Shown: positions 4,005-62,648 of the stretch, in pieces | Layout: each line of letters starts with the position of its first letter | Numbering within the stretch: position 1 is the first letter of the stretch | DNA from: a virus | Taxonomy: Duplodnaviria > Caudoviricetes | DNA: 64,000 nt | Direction: 5' to 3' (one strand) | Virus record (IMG/VR): IMGVR_UViG_3300033066_002088 | Location: 7,605 to 71,604 of that record | Made by a program: the position numbers and the translations under genes | The notes under the pieces: generated by a model | Database searches by the model: none | Seen by the model: the letters and a program-made list of their open reading frames with translations, nothing else | Told to the model about the DNA's origin: nothing

Positions 4005-7000
4005 ACTTCCGGTGATCTCATTCACCGAGGACCAGGTGCACCCCGATAACCAATCGCCGCGGGCGAAAGGGCCGGTTTGCGGCGGTTGCGCTCTGGAAAA
4101 AGAACCTAGGGTGTTTGGGACAGGCGCTGCCGCGCCTGTCGACATTATGCTGGTGTCCGAAGCCCCTTCTATGTTTTCCGCCAATAATCAGCGGCATTTC
4201 TCGGGGAAGGGCGGGCAAATTATTCGTAAGACGTGGCAGACGCTCGTAGAAGCAGACGCCGTGTCGAAAGATGGGTGGGGCTTTGGGCGCCTAAAGCGCT
4301 TTGAAACCTACGCCGTACAGTGCCAAGTAGGAGAGCAGGACACGATCGCTTCAAAGACGATCGACCGGTGCTCTGTGTATCTGCACAGTGCAATCAAAAA
4401 CAAGAAGCCAAAGATCATTTTGGCACTTGGCGCCACCGCACTTCGTGCGGTTGGCGTCAGGTTTAACAAGTTTGATGACGTCCGTGGGCGTGTAATGAAA
4501 GTCCCCCTCGCGGGGGATGATTATTGTCTGGTGCTTCCTACGTTCAGCACCAAGGCGATCCTTGCGCGTATGGGCCTTTTTAACCTCTTTCGAGCTGACA
4601 TGGTACGCGCAATGCGTATTGCCACCGGAAAGGATGAGGTATTCATAAACACGGATATCGCTACCGTTACGAAGAACTACAAGATTCCCAAGACGGTGGA
4701 AGAAGTCCGTGATGTCTGCCGTGAGATCGTTCAGTACGCCGATGCCGGCGGCGACCCACAAAACTGGACAATCGCAGTGGACACCGAGACCAACACCCTG
4801 CACCCCGAGAGAGAGCACGCGCGCGTCCTGTGCGTCTCATTCGCCTGGGGGGAGGGGAAGGCTACTGCGATCCCCCTTTGGCACAAGGACGCCAAATGGA
4901 AGGCGGAAGAGGTCTTACCTTACGTACGAGAGGTTCTCGAATCTTCTAAGCCCAAGGTCTTTCATAACGCGAAGTTCGATTTGAAGTTTTTGGAGCTGCG
5001 ACACGGCCTTCGAGTCAATAATTACGCGTGGTGCACACTCGCTGGAGAGCATCTACTTCGCGAAGATCAGCAAGGTGCGTATTCTCTTAAGGTACTTGCA
5101 CGTAGCTTTTTCCCGCAATTCTCTAATTATGCGGACCACATCCATGACGTTGCGTCAGCGCTTTCTGAGGCTGACGGGATGATCGAAGAAATCATTGATC
5201 ACCATACCGGCAAAGGAAAGAAGGGAAACCGTTACGGGAAACTTCCGCCGTTCGGAATGGAAGAGGTCCCTTCTAACGAAATGTCCGCGAAAGAACTGCG
5301 TGAGTATTACTTCGGCACGTCGGACGAGCGGAAAGCACGTCGAAAAGAAGACGTGAATTACGAGAAAGTTCCTATCGAAGATTTGCTCCTGTACGCGGCA
5401 ATCGATACGGATCTAACGCGACGGCTAATCAAGCACCAGTTTATGCGTATTCGACAAGAACGCTGCGACGCGGTGAAAACGCTTGGAAAGACCCATGCAG
5501 TGCCCGCTTCTAGAACCCTCGGAAAGATGGAATACGGGGGAATGCGGGTAGACGTACCTTATCTTGATACGCTAGAAAAAGACCTCGATGAGGTTATTGC
5601 GGCAAAAGATAAAGAGCTTCGTCAGTATTTCCACATGTTGCGGGATTCCAAGACGGGCCGAGATCTAATGCCGTCGGACTTCAACCCCAATTCTACACAA
5701 CACGTGGAACATATTTTGTACAGTTGGGGAGTGATTCAAGACTTCCAGGCGGCCGACGTTCTTAATCATTCTAACAGGAAGACGCGTTACATCAACGACA
5801 CTATCACCGGGACAACTAAGACCGGCCGCTGGAAGACGGACAAGAAGACCCTCAAGGCAATTGAAAAAGAATTCAATTGCAATTTCGCTACATCACTCCT
5901 GCATTATCGTGCGGCGCATAAAGCACGTAACGGCTTCCTGAAAGAAGTGCGTCGTCTATCGGCTTACGATGGAAGACTGCACACCAGTTTCCATCTTCAC
6001 GGTACTAAGACCGGACGCCTGTCATCTTCCGACTTGAATATGCAGAATATTCCGGCGGGTAAGCTGGCAGGACACAATATCAAAAAGCTATTCATTCCTG
6101 ATACAGATGACGAGCTGATTCTTAACTTGGATTATCGTGGGGCGGAGATCAGAATCTTCGCGGCTTATTCTCGCGACGAAAAACTGATTGAAGCGCTACT
6201 CCGGGGCCTTGACGCGCACTCCTTCTTCACCGAGAAGCTGTATGGCCATCCCTACGAAGAAGTTGAAGCGGCCAAAGACTACGACTTCAAGGGCGCGTAT
6301 GCCCGTGGCGTTCCCGCTGTCGTAATCAAGCGCATGGAAATGTTGAAGGCCGCACGTACAAACATCAAGCGTGTCGTATTTGGCGTTCTCTACGGTGCCC
6401 AGGCTAAAAAGATCGCGGAGACCGCGGGTAACATTACACCGGAAGAAGCACAGAAAGTCATCGACGACCTGTTCGCCATGTTTCCATCGATTCCAAGTTG
6501 GATCGAACAGACGAAAAATTTCATCTACCAGAACGGCTACGTAGAGACCTTTTTCAGTCGACGCAGGCGGTTCCCACTGCACCACGTAAATAAGTTCTTC
6601 AGGAGTCAAGGGGAGCGGCAGGGCGTCAATATGCTTATTCAGGCGACGTCAAATGACATCGTTCTTGGGCAGCTTGTCGAGCTGGATCAGCATATCCATG
6701 AAGTGGGTGGCCGGCTTTGCATCACGGTTCACGACTCGATTGTTGCGTCGATCCCTAAAAAGAATGTTCAACAACTTCCGGATTTCCTCAACTATTACTG
6801 CGTAAAGCGCGTATCGGAAAAATACCCGTGGCTTCCCGTTCCGTTTGCTTGTGATATTCAGGTCGGGCCTAGTTACGGAGAGACGGTGGACCTGGGGGAG
6901 TACTTGAAAACGCAGGCCGCAGAATCCAGACTCACCGAAGACGATACATTTGACCAGGAGGTGCTTGACGAACTCAGGGATGAAGATGCGGGGGAGGCCA

Positions 7001-7373: not shown

Positions 7374-7760
7374 ATGATGAGCAAGAAGGCACATATTGTC
7401 GACGGTGAAGTTCAGTGGGACAGCGTCCTTCAACAGTCCAAGGTAGCGCTGTACCAGACACTTAAGGGGCCAATCATGGGCCTGCAGACCTCGGAAACAG
7501 AGAGGCATGTTTGCCTCTACGCGCCAGCAATGCTGGTGGCGCCGACGGCAGACAAGGTAGTCTTCATGCCGGTCATGTTTGTCGAGAACTTCATCCTGCT
7601 TTACAAAAATAGTTTGTTCGGGACTAATCCCGCGCCAGAAGTTGTCATCAAAGGCTACATGGATTATGTGAAGAGATTTGCAGAAGAGGCCTTTCAAATG
7701 AAGCCTCTGGAAATCGCCGCTGGCGTGGATGTTCCGACGGAAAGGAGCGATGAGAAGTAA
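7374..7760 (+). CDS. Hypothetical phage protein (possible Sm-like beta fold)
   Basis: AGGAGG SD; beta-rich pattern ending in a ...VIKGY helix. The fold is a guess. Confidence 0.6.
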   Translation: MMSKKAHIVDGEVQWDSVLQQSKVALYQTLKGPIMGLQTSETERHVCLYAPAMLVAPTADKVVFMPVMFVENFILLYKNSLFGTNPAPEVVIKGYMDYVKRFAEEAFQMKPLEIAAGVDVPTERSDEK

Positions 7761-7764
7761 TTTC

Positions 7765-7795
7765 TTGACAGCCCCCGGGGTGTTTATGGTAGAAG
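7765..7795 (+). promoter_or_regulatory. Putative promoter: TTGACA, 19-nt spacer, TG-G-TAGAAG
   Basis: TTGACA at 7765-7770 and ATGGTAGAAG at 7786-7795, a member of the recurrent TTGGTAnAAG family, upstream of the SD and ATG at 7816. Confidence 0.5.
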
Positions 7796-7815
7796 CAAAT
7801 GCAGGAGAACATCAT

Positions 7816-8685
7816 ATGCCTAGACCTGCGATCCCCGACCATAACCTATTCTTTTTCGACTGCGAAACAGGTGGACTAAAAGTCGGGGTCAATGAGATTT
7901 TAGAAGTGTCATGCATTGTTACAGATCCGTCGGCGCTTAGAGTACTGAAAAAGTACACGGCGAAAGTGCGGCCTGTCCATCCCGATAGGGTGGACCCAAA
8001 GGCGGCAGCGATCAATGGTTACACCCCTCAAGTTTGGGAGAAGGAAGCCATTCCGCTCGACGACGCAATGGTGAGCATGCTCTCGATGGCGAGGGACAGT
8101 ATCTTCGTTGCGCACAATGCCCCCTTTGATTGGGGGTTCTTTGAGCATGCGATGAGTGTACGGGGGCAGCGGTGGCCGGGTGACTACCACCGCGTCGACA
8201 CCTGTGCACTAGCGTGGCCGCTGCTGCGTGCTGGGAAGGTCCCTAGCGTCAAGCTGCAGACTCTCGTAGATTATTTTGGGATCGTAAATGAAGCGGCTCA
8301 CCGGGCAAGTGGTGATGTGGAAGCTTGTCGTCAGTTGTACGTCAAATTGATGGAAATGTTCATGCCAGCCGTCGACCCTTCCGCGGCTGTTGTGAAGTTT
8401 GACGCGGCTTCCACTTCCCCTGTAAAAACAACGGCGCCCTTTGACTGTCATAAAGAATGGCTGCCTTTGATCAAGCAGTTCAAGAACCCCGTTATTTGCC
8501 TGACGCGAGAAGATGAGTTCCGCCTTCTGGAATGGGCGTCACCGCTCATCATGGGAGGCACACTCTACGGCCAAGTTCTCCAAGAGGGCGTTCGCTGCAT
8601 GCCCAAGTTCCACGGAGCATGGATTCAGTGGGACGCAGAAAAATTCGAAGTGCGTGAGGCCACGAACCTAGGCGCAGGCATTTAA
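7816..8685 (+). CDS. DEDDh 3'-5' exonuclease (DnaQ/RNase T-like) with C-terminal extension
   Basis: FFDCETGG, VAHNAPFD, DTC, HRASGDV motifs. Start moved to ATG 7816, which follows an AGGAG SD. Confidence 0.9.
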   Translation: MPRPAIPDHNLFFFDCETGGLKVGVNEILEVSCIVTDPSALRVLKKYTAKVRPVHPDRVDPKAAAINGYTPQVWEKEAIPLDDAMVSMLSMARDSIFVAHNAPFDWGFFEHAMSVRGQRWPGDYHRVDTCALAWPLLRAGKVPSVKLQTLVDYFGIVNEAAHRASGDVEACRQLYVKLMEMFMPAVDPSAAVVKFDAASTSPVKTTAPFDCHKEWLPLIKQFKNPVICLTREDEFRLLEWASPLIMGGTLYGQVLQEGVRCMPKFHGAWIQWDAEKFEVREATNLGAGI

Positions 8686-8721
8686 GTTCCCGTGGGGTGG
8701 CTCGACGTGGATAGTCGAGAA

Positions 8722-8868
8722 ATGGGAATTCCTGAGGTGAAGCGCAACCCACTATATACTCAGGACGGCTCGCACCGCTGTAGACGGCCCGACACTAGGG
8801 ATAAATGGTGCGGTATGTGTGACGACTCGGAGAGACGAGTACTATGCGCGGCAGGCGCGGCCCATTAA
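8722..8868 (+). CDS. Possible 48-aa Cys-rich microprotein (below the ORF-track cutoff)
   Basis: MGIPEVKRNPLYTQDGSHRCRRPDTRDKWCGMCDDSERRVLCAAGAAH*; weak SD. The region also folds as RNA. Confidence 0.3.
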   Translation: MGIPEVKRNPLYTQDGSHRCRRPDTRDKWCGMCDDSERRVLCAAGAAH

Positions 8869-8883
8869 ACAGCGCAAGTTAGT

Positions 8884-8945
8884 CACGACGTGGCATGGTA
8901 GCCTTGCGGCTTTACCGCTCAGCTGGTGAAAGTCCAGTCGTCGTG
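8884..8945 (+). ncRNA. Miniature tRNA-like cloverleaf (non-canonical, no encoded CCA)
   Basis: 7-bp acceptor stem 8884-8890/8939-8945; 3-bp D arm with AUGGUA loop; 4-bp arm with CUUUA loop; 5-bp T arm 8922-8926/8934-8938 with 7-nt UGAAAGU loop directly abutting the acceptor strand. Confidence 0.55.
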
Positions 8946-8947
8946 CG

Positions 8948-9001
8948 GGGTGTGCGGCCCACCCTAAGCCCCTGGCGGGGCTTAAAGAAGGGGATTCCTT
9001 C
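8948..9001. terminator. Three tandem hairpins between convergent genes (probable termination/processing signal)
   Basis: GGGTG/CACCC (8948-8964), TAAGCCC/GGGCTTA (8965-8984), GAAGG/CCTTC (8987-9001); no long U tract. Confidence 0.5.
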
Positions 9002-9014
9002 AGGCCGCTATTCT

Positions 9015-10664
9015 TTAGTAGAAACGTAGGTCAGCGTTTAAGATGCGCCACGCAACCCAGCCAAATAGCTGTGCGTGTAGGCAATCGTCGGGCTGTGTCG
9101 GGGCATGACGCCAGACCTTGCGCCCCATGCTTGTCGTCTCTTCGTAAACGTTCAAAATGTCGTCGATGGCCGGCTTCATGGCGCCACGCGGCCCGTAGAT
9201 GACTTTCCTGTTTTTCACGAACATCGCGAAGTTGTCAATGAGCGTCGTTCTGTCGGAGAGATAAGACAGCGTCTGCGGGTCGTAATCGATTGGCTTTGAG
9301 CGACTCAAGTATCTGATCTGCTGACAACGATGGGCGCCAAGACGCTCTCTCAGCAATGCGTTAGCCATCTGGCCTTCGCCAGCGTCTCCAACAATCATCT
9401 GCACTCCCCAGCTCTTGCAGACCTCAACGATCTCTTCAATCCATCCGGTGCAGTGGCCGTTTGGAAAGATCTTGTAGTACAGCGTCTTTAGGCGCCCATC
9501 CGGCAATTCGCCCCATAAGTGAAGAACTGTCCGAGACTTGACCAACCCCTCGGTGCCCTTTACTTCCGCGCCTCCGCCTGACCAGTCTACACCCGCAACA
9601 ACCTTCTTAATGTTAGGGAGGTGTCCTGGCGACAGGCGGGACAGTTGAATAGTCTCGTCGCAAAGTTCCTCGAGGAGTTCTTTAGTCAAAAGCCGAGCGC
9701 CTGTAGACGTAGATACACCGATCACTTCGTTGAGAAACTGATTCTCTGAGTACTGATCCATCTTCCGCAGGAGATTCCCCCAGCGCTCGATGGCCTTGTC
9801 GTATTCCCGAGTTCCGGTGTTCCAGGCCGCGGGTACGTTCTCGGGCATGATCGGTTGACTAACATGGAACCCCTTGAGAGCGGGTCCCGTTCGGATGCCG
9901 GTCTCTAGGTCTTTTCCACCGTAACCATCGACCATATCAACCCATCGACCATTCCGTGGATTGAGGGGTTTCCTGCACCCGATACATTCGGGACCCATTT
10001 TTCCAAAGGCTTTCGTAGTGACGATAAACGTAGATTTACCGCAAGCGTCACACTTCATCACCCATTCGCTTTGACTAGACAAACTCCACAGATACTCGAT
10101 CGTATTTTCGCTAGTCTTAGGAGTGCCCGTGTACGACGAATATTGGTAATTCGAGTTTGACATACATTCCTCAATGACCGGAATGACTGCGTCATAGAGG
10201 ATGTCCTGCACTTCGTCGAAAAAGCAGTGATCAGCCGAGTAACCACGCGCGCGGTCAGGATCGTCGAGGGCGTACGTAAACGCCATTTCTGATCCATTTT
10301 GCATCATACGAAGAAGGACGTTGTCGATCGACTGCGGACCAACAAACCCTTCTCGTACTGCCGGAGAATACGCCAAGAACTTCGCGACTCGTGTATGTGA
10401 GAACTTACGCGTCTGCTCGGAAGTTGGCGTAATGTAGTAAACCTTGAAAAAGTCGGTTCCAACGCACTCTGCAATCATGAAAGCGGCGTTGGTAATAGAC
10501 TTACCCACTTGCCGTGCAGTTTTTAAGACAGTTTTGGGGTAAACGCCATCGTAAATGGCGCGGTGCATTGGGTAGTTTTCCAGGCTGAATGGCTTACCGT
10601 CCCAATGGAGCCAGCTTTCCGCTAGCCGGCTTCTAAATTCGTGGACCTCAGTCGTATCGCTCAT
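9015..10664 (-). CDS. terL: Terminase large subunit (GpA-like, with zinc-finger insertion)
   Basis: KTARQVGKS Walker A, FFDEVQD Walker B, YTGTPK coupling motif, CDAC...CIGC insert, GVDWSGG and PDDCLHA nuclease motifs. Confidence 0.93.
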   Translation of the reverse strand: MSDTTEVHEFRSRLAESWLHWDGKPFSLENYPMHRAIYDGVYPKTVLKTARQVGKSITNAAFMIAECVGTDFFKVYYITPTSEQTRKFSHTRVAKFLAYSPAVREGFVGPQSIDNVLLRMMQNGSEMAFTYALDDPDRARGYSADHCFFDEVQDILYDAVIPVIEECMSNSNYQYSSYTGTPKTSENTIEYLWSLSSQSEWVMKCDACGKSTFIVTTKAFGKMGPECIGCRKPLNPRNGRWVDMVDGYGGKDLETGIRTGPALKGFHVSQPIMPENVPAAWNTGTREYDKAIERWGNLLRKMDQYSENQFLNEVIGVSTSTGARLLTKELLEELCDETIQLSRLSPGHLPNIKKVVAGVDWSGGGAEVKGTEGLVKSRTVLHLWGELPDGRLKTLYYKIFPNGHCTGWIEEIVEVCKSWGVQMIVGDAGEGQMANALLRERLGAHRCQQIRYLSRSKPIDYDPQTLSYLSDRTTLIDNFAMFVKNRKVIYGPRGAMKPAIDDILNVYEETTSMGRKVWRHAPTQPDDCLHAQLFGWVAWRILNADLRFY

Positions 10665-22103: not shown

Positions 22104-22113
22104 TTGGTATAAG
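22104..22113 (+). promoter_or_regulatory. TTGGTATAAG motif (putative phage promoter)
   Basis: Exact member of the TTGGTAnAAG family, 27 nt upstream of the lipoprotein ATG. Confidence 0.65.
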
Positions 22114-61735: not shown

Positions 61736-62056
61736 GTGCCACATATAAGTGAACTGTATCAGAACCAAAGAGCGGCGGCCGAAGCACGTTACGGAAAACA
61801 AAACATATACGGCATGCGGTTCCATTACCTGTACGGATGGCTCCCGGTAATGAGCAATCTACCTGATTTCGGGCCAGGAACCCCACCGTGGGAATCACTT
61901 AGCGACGTCACGGATCGCCTCTCTCTCGAACCATCGCTGCTAGGTCAGCTGCTAGACGAGAGGCGTGTTGCTTTGTGTATATCTGTGAAAACCGAAGAGT
62001 TCTTTATCAGATTTACGGGAGGAGCGTTAGATGACGCTAGTCATTCAAGCATATGA
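61736..62056 (+). CDS. Hypothetical protein
   Basis: AAGGAG SD before the GTG. Confidence 0.6.
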   Translation: MPHISELYQNQRAAAEARYGKQNIYGMRFHYLYGWLPVMSNLPDFGPGTPPWESLSDVTDRLSLEPSLLGQLLDERRVALCISVKTEEFFIRFTGGALDDASHSSI

Positions 62057-62648
62057 CTGCCCGCTCGATGCGGGAGAGCGCATGCTGGACCATGTATTGA
62101 ATGAATTACGGACCGAGTGGAAATATCACATCGTAGCCGTCTGCTCAGCAGGGGACTACACGTTCGGGCGTACGATCTTGCAACGAGAGCGCAATACTAT
62201 TAAATACGGTCACACGTACGGGAGTCGCAAAGCCCCACCCCCCTACGACCCAAAGAACCCGAATAATTTTTACCAATGGTACTCAGAAGAGAGGCTTGGG
62301 CGTGCGGGCCTATTCAAAAACAGATATCCAAATAGCGCTGAACTGCGCCTAACTGAAATAAAACACCTGAGCCGCGGGCGTTTCGTGGATAAATACCCCG
62401 TCCACGAGAGTCGAACGCCGACTTTCAAATGGGCAATAGCCCTGGATTGGGACGCGCTCATAACGTTCTACGACACTCTAAACAAGATCCTCGACCGACT
62501 GCCGTTTCCAACGATGGCGTGGAATTGGATTCCACGTAAATTAGTCATTCGACTCGAGAACAAAGCACGAAAGCGGTTTGACTACCATTTCGACCCAGAC
62601 GGCAAGGTCATACTAAATCTGGGGACGCCTGATCAATTCGAGGAGTGA
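62031..62648 (+). CDS. Hypothetical protein
   Basis: GGAGGAG SD. Confidence 0.65.
   Translation: MTLVIQAYDCPLDAGERMLDHVLNELRTEWKYHIVAVCSAGDYTFGRTILQRERNTIKYGHTYGSRKAPPPYDPKNPNNFYQWYSEERLGRAGLFKNRYPNSAELRLTEIKHLSRGRFVDKYPVHESRTPTFKWAIALDWDALITFYDTLNKILDRLPFPTMAWNWIPRKLVIRLENKARKRFDYHFDPDGKVILNLGTPDQFEE

Follow-up and report, generated by a model that had tools for sequence, protein, structure and literature searches.

A tRNA-like element, probably degenerate and of putative function, in a phage tRNA-gene slot

RNase P and RNase Z, like the CCA-adding enzyme, gauge their substrates by the stack formed by acceptor stem and T arm, and a U at position -1 is the usual RNase P context. tRNA-like processing signals have been documented in organelles and in eukaryotic nuclei, and to our knowledge no phage case is known. 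Here we analyse a 62-nt miniature cloverleaf, similar in size to mascRNA, that lies in a 64-kb stretch of DNA (hereafter the window) from an uncultured phage, taken from the 71.6-kb record IMGVR_UViG_3300033066_002088 (CheckV completeness 38%). Plant-mitochondrial t-elements (Forner et al. 2007, PMC1920247) and, at the 3′ end of MALAT1, mascRNA are non-decoding cloverleaves downstream of an mRNA or a longer RNA, as the element would be. In its predicted fold the acceptor/T-arm stack is intact too and could be used by RNase P and RNase Z to form transcript ends; the element differs from them in belonging to a bacterial virus, in lying 198 nt past a stop codon, in being unconserved and in having no Rfam match at E <= 10. 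The tRNA-shaped 'enigmatic introns' found in phage tRNAs (Devoto et al. 2019, PMC6784885) likewise combine a mini cloverleaf with a large uncultured phage of a tRNA-bearing lineage, but the element is not nested in a tRNA. The tRNA-like domains of tmRNA and of bacterial YrlA Y RNAs (PMC4201824) resemble the element in pairing a preserved mimic of the acceptor/T-arm half with diminished D and anticodon arms; unlike these, the element has no extra RNA body, draws no tmRNA call and matches nothing in Rfam. The first-pass annotation had been reminded of mascRNA/menRNA and YrlA, a likeness that holds for shape but does not extend to a match with any curated family. Phage tRNA pseudogenes and remnants resemble the element in tRNA-gene position and strand, in the cloverleaf, in most of the universal nucleotides and in the failure of detectors to find them. 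They differ from it in two respects: the stems of the element are all paired, with shortening limited to the loops and the bottom half, and no significant sequence link connects the element to any parental tRNA. Perfect stems with shortened loops are not what random decay predicts.

The element lies in a 329-nt gap between two convergent genes (Table 1), which had been called a DEDDh exonuclease gene and a terminase gene in the first-pass annotation, calls with which Pfam agrees in both cases. For the plus strand of 8884-8945, RNAfold gives the cloverleaf as both the minimum free energy (MFE) and the centroid structure (-24.2 kcal/mol), with all 19 base pairs unbroken. The earlier arm-by-arm description is borne out in every detail by the sequence and by these folds, and re-reading the sequence likewise finds TpsiC, a 7-nt anticodon loop and an encoded CCA to be missing from the 62 nt; the trailer reads CGGG, and the base directly 5′ of the cloverleaf is a U. 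The fold survives in sequence contexts of up to ~215 nt. When the full 329-nt spacer is folded, however, 8821-8830 takes the 3′ acceptor strand (pairing with 8934-8942) and the cloverleaf loses by 3.8 kcal/mol (unconstrained optimum -129.3 versus -125.5 kcal/mol with the cloverleaf forced). A larger structured RNA upstream of the cloverleaf was considered and rejected, since 8686-8883 is no more structured than its shuffles (z = 0.07).

Table 1. Features of the exonuclease/terL junction in the window, and tRNA genes at the same junction in related loci
Feature	Position or locus	Strand	Details
DEDDh (RNase_T family) exonuclease gene	7729-8685	+	318 aa; Pfam RNase_T, 7e-19
Large terminase subunit gene terL (gpA-type ATPase)	9015-10664	-	Pfam GpA_ATPase and Terminase_6N
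Spacer from exonuclease stop codon to cloverleaf	8686-8883	+	198 nt; includes 8821-8830, able to compete with 8884-8890 for the 3′ acceptor strand
Miniature cloverleaf	8884-8945	+	62 nt; MFE and centroid fold
Acceptor stem	8884-8890 / 8939-8945	+	7 Watson-Crick pairs, no mismatch
U8	8891	+	single U
D arm	8892-8903	+	3 bp, loop AUGGUA
UU linker	8904-8905	+	
Anticodon-like arm	8906-8918	+	4 bp, 5-nt loop CUUUA
Canonical tRNA D-arm 10-mer GCTCAGCTGG	8917-8926	+	spans end of anticodon-like arm, variable region and 5′ T stem
Variable region UCA	8919-8921	+	3 nt
T arm	8922-8938	+	5 bp including one G-U, 7-nt loop UGAAAGU, abuts acceptor 3′ strand
Second T-arm-like hairpin GGGTG / loop TGCGGCC / CACCC	8948-8964	+	5 bp, 7-nt loop; read from sequence and fold
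Perfect 7-bp GC-rich hairpin with tetraloop	8966-8983	no strand assigned	fold; U tract absent on both strands
tRNA-Gln(UUG) and tRNA-Ala(UGC) in gap	L009, L010, L011, L014, L019	exonuclease strand	genuine tRNA genes
tRNA-Gln in gap	L013	exonuclease strand	
tRNA-Val(UAC) in gap	L018	exonuclease strand	

Upstream of the cloverleaf we find neither a sigma-70-like promoter nor a TTGGTAWAAG motif, and the element is therefore probably co-transcribed with the exonuclease operon. The motif itself occurs 12 times in the window at <=1 mismatch, against 4.8 copies expected (none of 100 shuffles reaches 12); its five exact copies are all on the plus strand, at 22104, 43243, 55542, 59449 and 60680, none near the cloverleaf, and on sequence grounds it could be a promoter-type motif of the phage. 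The exonuclease encoded upstream has residues ~30-215 conserved in relatives by tblastn, and the relatives' protein is ~190 aa long. The window's frame overruns their end point by ~100 codons; its C-terminal 102 aa (8377-8682) match themselves alone among 1.84 billion representative proteins, and are a new C-terminal tail or else the product of reading on into DNA inserted there.

The first-pass annotation had guessed that tRNA finders would miss the element, and they do: ARAGORN at default settings reports 0 tRNA genes and no tmRNA in the whole window, and for the Rfam tRNA model RF00005 (threshold 29 bits) neither the local region nor the complete viral record has a match at E <= 10. Relaxed ARAGORN runs call the element only under the mitochondrial model with -ps80, where it is one of 10 spurious calls made within 500 nt; the hairpin at 8948-8964 serves as the T arm in low-threshold calls. 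A cmscan of 8400-9300 against Rfam at E <= 10 returns only chance-level matches to unrelated families, of which the best, group II intron D1-D4-4 through the GGUGAAAGUCC hairpin, was set aside with E = 0.86. We also rejected a tRNA-shaped intron nested in the anticodon loop of a tRNA, for which ARAGORN, allowed introns of 0-120 nt and run on 900 deletion variants as well, yielded one poor call, a tRNA-Trp that reuses the mini acceptor as anticodon stem and has three acceptor mismatches and a 2-bp D stem. Of the parts of a tRNA, the element has the canonical 7-bp acceptor, on which a 5-bp T stem stacks; its T loop has the standard 7 nt but is not a canonical U54-U55-C56-R57-A58, in which 55/56 could pair with D-loop G18-G19. 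Where a tRNA has a 5-bp anticodon stem and a 7-nt loop containing U33, a 3-nt anticodon and R37, the element has a 4-bp stem and CUUUA; its 5-nt loop and the lack of U55 and C56 leave it unable to decode.

We compared the junction across 80 related IMG/VR loci from uncultured ~185-kb phages, a comparison that covered the closest terL homologues (P0002-P0020, 64-68% identity) where their contigs are also in IMG/VR. The terL product of the window has 605 homologues at E <= 1e-30, the closest being 68% identical, and reaches at most 30.5% identity with those of cultured GenBank phages. The gene order PolA, small ORF and exonuclease, followed by convergent terL, is kept in ~30 IMG/VR loci, and the gap between exonuclease and terL in relatives ranges from -10 (a 10-nt overlap) to ~1000 nt. 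Genuine tRNA genes lie in this gap in seven loci, on the exonuclease strand, which corresponds to the plus strand of the window (Table 1). The exonuclease closest to that of the window is that of the L009 group (63.7% identity). There the tRNAs begin 7 nt after the stop codon of the exonuclease gene and extend as far as that of terL, and they must therefore be excised from the tail of the early transcript. Related genomes encode only 2-6 tRNAs each, at two or three sites, and the prior for a chance cloverleaf in a 329-nt slot on this strand is ~0.001 (0.40 x 329 / 128,000). The synteny of exonuclease and terL with tRNA genes, as read from these loci, is evidence independent of the observation made in the first-pass annotation.

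Judged from the gene content of these loci, the exonuclease/terL junction is a spot of plasticity that holds tRNAs, small Cys-rich ORFs, an HNH-like ORF or nothing. An HNH-like ORF of 147 aa adjoins the tRNA-Gln in L013 (4691-5090, minus strand); L015 (4600-4790, minus) and L016 (4591-4781, minus) have in common a ~60-aa CxxC...CxxC ORF; and Cys-rich ORFs occupy the junction in L005 (4615-5612, minus). We note that a sizeable minority of the terL homologues overall are 890-950 aa long instead of ~540 (P0006, P0021, P0044, P0055, P0057, P0071, P0075, P0081, P0084, P0086-P0088 and P0092), and several of these carry PF14528 or PF14890, which suggests that they are probably intein-bearing terminases. 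In a further locus (L001; IMGVR_UViG_3300010413_000020), a ~1.15-kb non-coding stretch between terL and PolA contains, just downstream of terL (5830-6630), a hairpin array of ~9 tandem units at 60-95 nt spacing. In each unit a short conserved hairpin of 5 bp (AGGCA-CUGC-UGUCU) precedes a long one of ~15-30 pairs whose sequence varies per unit. The stretch has no Rfam match and no tRNA, and its predicted folds resemble a string of small structured RNAs. The repeat motif of this array is absent from the window.

The rival that survives best is that the element is a chance fold of a GC-rich spacer between convergent genes, and that its tRNA nucleotides and its place in a tRNA slot are coincidental. 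By its shape alone the cloverleaf is not significant. A relaxed descriptor, which like the tRNA-invariant score used below was drawn up once the element had been seen, asks for three hairpins of generous sizes enclosed by a perfect 7-bp stem, the last of them abutting that stem. It has two matches in the window, 8884-8945 and 62041-62104, and simulated windows of the same dinucleotide make-up contain 0.40 relaxed cloverleaves each, with at least one in 31% of simulations. Such a rate of 0.4 per 64 kb is a warning that cloverleaf shape alone proves nothing. The second match, on the plus strand, also has a perfect 7-bp closing stem and is an example of a chance cloverleaf: its tRNA-invariant score is 3/14, and it overlaps a 205-codon open frame (62031-62648, plus) and so is probably inside a gene. 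Chance would also account for a fold whose z is only -2.04 (9 of 200 shuffles reach equal stability), for the loss of the cloverleaf from the MFE of the whole spacer, for an element conserved nowhere and for the failure of the tRNA models.

Against this stand the nucleotides of the element and its site. We scored 14 universal tRNA features, namely U8, G10, A14, D-loop GG, A21, U33, a 7-nt anticodon loop, G53-C61, U54, U55, C56, R57, A58 and a 7-nt T loop. The element has 11 of the 14 (U8, G10, A14, G18-G19, A21, U33, G53-C61, U54, R57, A58 and the 7-nt T loop); its positions 55 and 56 are G and A instead of U and C. By comparison, 927 simulated chance cloverleaves have a mean score of ~4 and a maximum of 9, and relaxed cloverleaves in real DNA other than tRNAs score 0-7 when related phage loci (0.61 Mb) are scanned together with the window and 1-7 when unrelated contigs (1.0 Mb) are, whereas the ARAGORN-confirmed tRNAs in those same two scans score 11-14. 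Binomial extrapolation puts a score of 11/14 at ~1e-4 per chance cloverleaf. The element also sits in a spacer of just 329 nt, on the same strand as the relatives' tRNA genes, and contains the tRNA D-arm 10-mer GCTCAGCTGG, which elsewhere in 1.62 Mb of loci occurs in true tRNAs only (the L009-type tRNA-Ala and one L093 tRNA). On account of the invariant score and the synteny, we regard chance as unlikely, and the same two lines of evidence, nucleotides above chance and a same-strand tRNA slot in relatives, uphold the original description of the element as tRNA-like.

In the element the 10-mer is misplaced for a simple deletion derivative of a tRNA. Taken together with the second T-arm-like hairpin, this suggests that the stretch may be the wreckage of more than one tRNA, and the element may be a scramble of two tRNA remnants. 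When the element is aligned locally to tRNA-Gln, tRNA-Ala and tRNA-Val of relatives, the scores have p = 0.05-0.26 relative to shuffles, short of significance.

Searches for homologues of the element were negative throughout. The spacer has no blastn match in the phage collection or in the 80 related loci, and a covariance model built from the single cloverleaf (R1) finds only itself in the 80 related loci (606 kb) and has no match in five whole related records. We also used two search patterns in which the loops were fixed and all stems were free to vary; their only matches are chance ones that do not fit R1. The loop-only pattern has one match in IMG/VR, 25 in metagenomes and 14 in the contigs of 185,000 prokaryotic genomes, all chance; a looser pattern of D loop plus T arm has 81 chance matches in IMG/VR and none that fits R1. 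The element is thus, by sequence comparison, unique to one uncultured phage among the sequences searched, and with no homologue found neither covariation nor selection can be demonstrated for it. Conservation of the stems in relatives, the check on which the first-pass annotation had proposed that its reading might fall, gave an unfavourable answer, the element being absent from every relative compared. Separately, we note that the large tRNA clusters of two unrelated viral contigs (L138, 1347-1626; L134, 365-644) leave a gap of ~280 nt between tRNA-Phe and tRNA-Lys. This gap opens with a CCGG-UGAAAGU-CCGG hairpin whose loop is identical to the T loop of the window's element, has nothing above chance in Rfam, and from its fold may represent an undescribed structured RNA within the cluster.

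We conclude that the slot in which relatives carry tRNA genes holds, in this phage, a tRNA-like element that is probably degenerate and is no new class of RNA, and that its function is only putative. The reading we prefer, to which we give a probability of about 0.5, is that it is a tRNA-derived relic whose intact acceptor/T-arm stack is perhaps still cut by RNase P and RNase Z, and which would at most mark the end of the early-operon transcript. That the element derives from a tRNA at all we consider likely. The ancestor would have been a phage tRNA gene, its descendant now lying where the PolA-exonuclease operon ends, within the variable junction with terL; the bottom half (D arm, anticodon arm and variable loop, with the linkers) would have shrunk by ~11 nt, U55 and C56 would have been lost from the T loop, and the 7+5-bp acceptor/T-arm stack would have been kept intact. 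Given this 12-bp stack, processing of the early transcript probably still cuts the element out, and it may at most act as a 'punctuation' signal that sets the 3′ end of the exonuclease mRNA, like the tRNAs of relatives in the same slot. A pseudogene heading for deletion is an equally possible fate; granted a tRNA origin, we would divide our expectation roughly in half between an element that is still processed and forms an end and one that is an inert relic.

Several features bear on this division. The tRNAs of relatives punctuate the early transcript from this slot, and a descendant that retains only the top half could keep that role; moreover, 19 unbroken pairs and a canonical 12-bp stack leave room for residual function. 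The idea of an RNase P/RNase Z processing tag, put forward in the first-pass annotation, is plausible given the intact stack, the U at -1 and the lack of a separate promoter, and the U at -1 together with a trailer without CCA would fit a substrate of the two enzymes. The uniqueness of the element, its position 198 nt past the stop codon in unstructured orphan sequence, its misplaced tRNA motifs and the competing pairing all count against a processing role. It is conceivable, though we think it unlikely, that the element is a selectively kept mini tRNA mimic, cut by host RNase P and RNase Z to form the 3′ end of the early PolA-exonuclease mRNA; it would then yield a ~62-nt RNA, possibly CCA-tagged, and its ancestor would have been a tRNA that in this slot both decoded and formed the transcript end.

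A further possibility is that the element was selected as a tRNA mimic acting in trans: it would be excised and work alone, for example as a decoy for host defences that target tRNAs, as a small RNA bearing a CCA tag or an amino acid, or by assisting a phage enzyme as its cofactor. Its four stems are unbroken though the loops are heavily trimmed, and its top half keeps the canonical 7/5 size together with U54, A58 and G53-C61, which speaks for such a mimic. We give the idea little credence, however: the element is a singleton without a homologue, so nothing shows selection; a 5-nt loop cannot imitate an anticodon loop; no synthetase identity set is recognised (no G3-U70, no G-1); and the 71.6-kb record, which represents 38% of the genome, encodes no CCA-adding enzyme and no RtcB. 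Two of the functions suggested at the outset fall within this class. A decoy for anticodon nucleases is unlikely, the loop being unlike any real anticodon loop, and a role as partner or substrate of the adjacent exonuclease is not supported, since ~30 relatives conserve the exonuclease gene without the element.

It could also be the minus strand that functions, with the mirror structure and the hairpin at 8966-8983 stabilising the 3′ end of the late terL mRNA or forming a barrier to transcription, including convergent transcription, and with the tRNA likeness irrelevant. The minus strand is in fact the more stable relative to its shuffles (-24.9 kcal/mol, z = -3.48; 0 of 200 shuffles as stable), and on this strand the element begins 69 nt past the terL stop codon. 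A terminator scan of the exonuclease/terL gap finds no canonical intrinsic terminator, so some other end-forming structure would be needed; the hairpin at 8966-8983 may, from its fold, be a transcript-end structure between the convergent genes. Nevertheless, the tRNA marks are confined to the plus strand, the minus strand of 8884-8945 does not fit the relaxed tRNA descriptor, relatives with overlapping stop codons do without such a structure, and the structure is not conserved, which leaves this reading a slim chance. That the spacer is protein-coding and the fold incidental is scarcely credible: open frames of 44 codons (8895-9029) and 58 codons (8692-8868) exist, and small Cys-rich ORFs occur in the junction of relatives, but neither frame has a homologue among 5.8 billion protein clusters, from which their own sequences are absent too.

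Lastly, we consider what a tRNA-derived relic at this junction would mean. The element is limited to one uncultured phage, and its practical value is limited accordingly. If it were a selected mimic after all, it would be a phage counterpart of the plant-mitochondrial t-elements or of mascRNA. If it is a relic only, it offers a small, clean case of how tRNA genes come and go at a hot-spot of plasticity, here among ~185-kb uncultured phages of one clade. If its top half has been kept by processing, it would illustrate a route by which a phage tRNA can lose decoding while keeping a role in 3′-end 'punctuation'.
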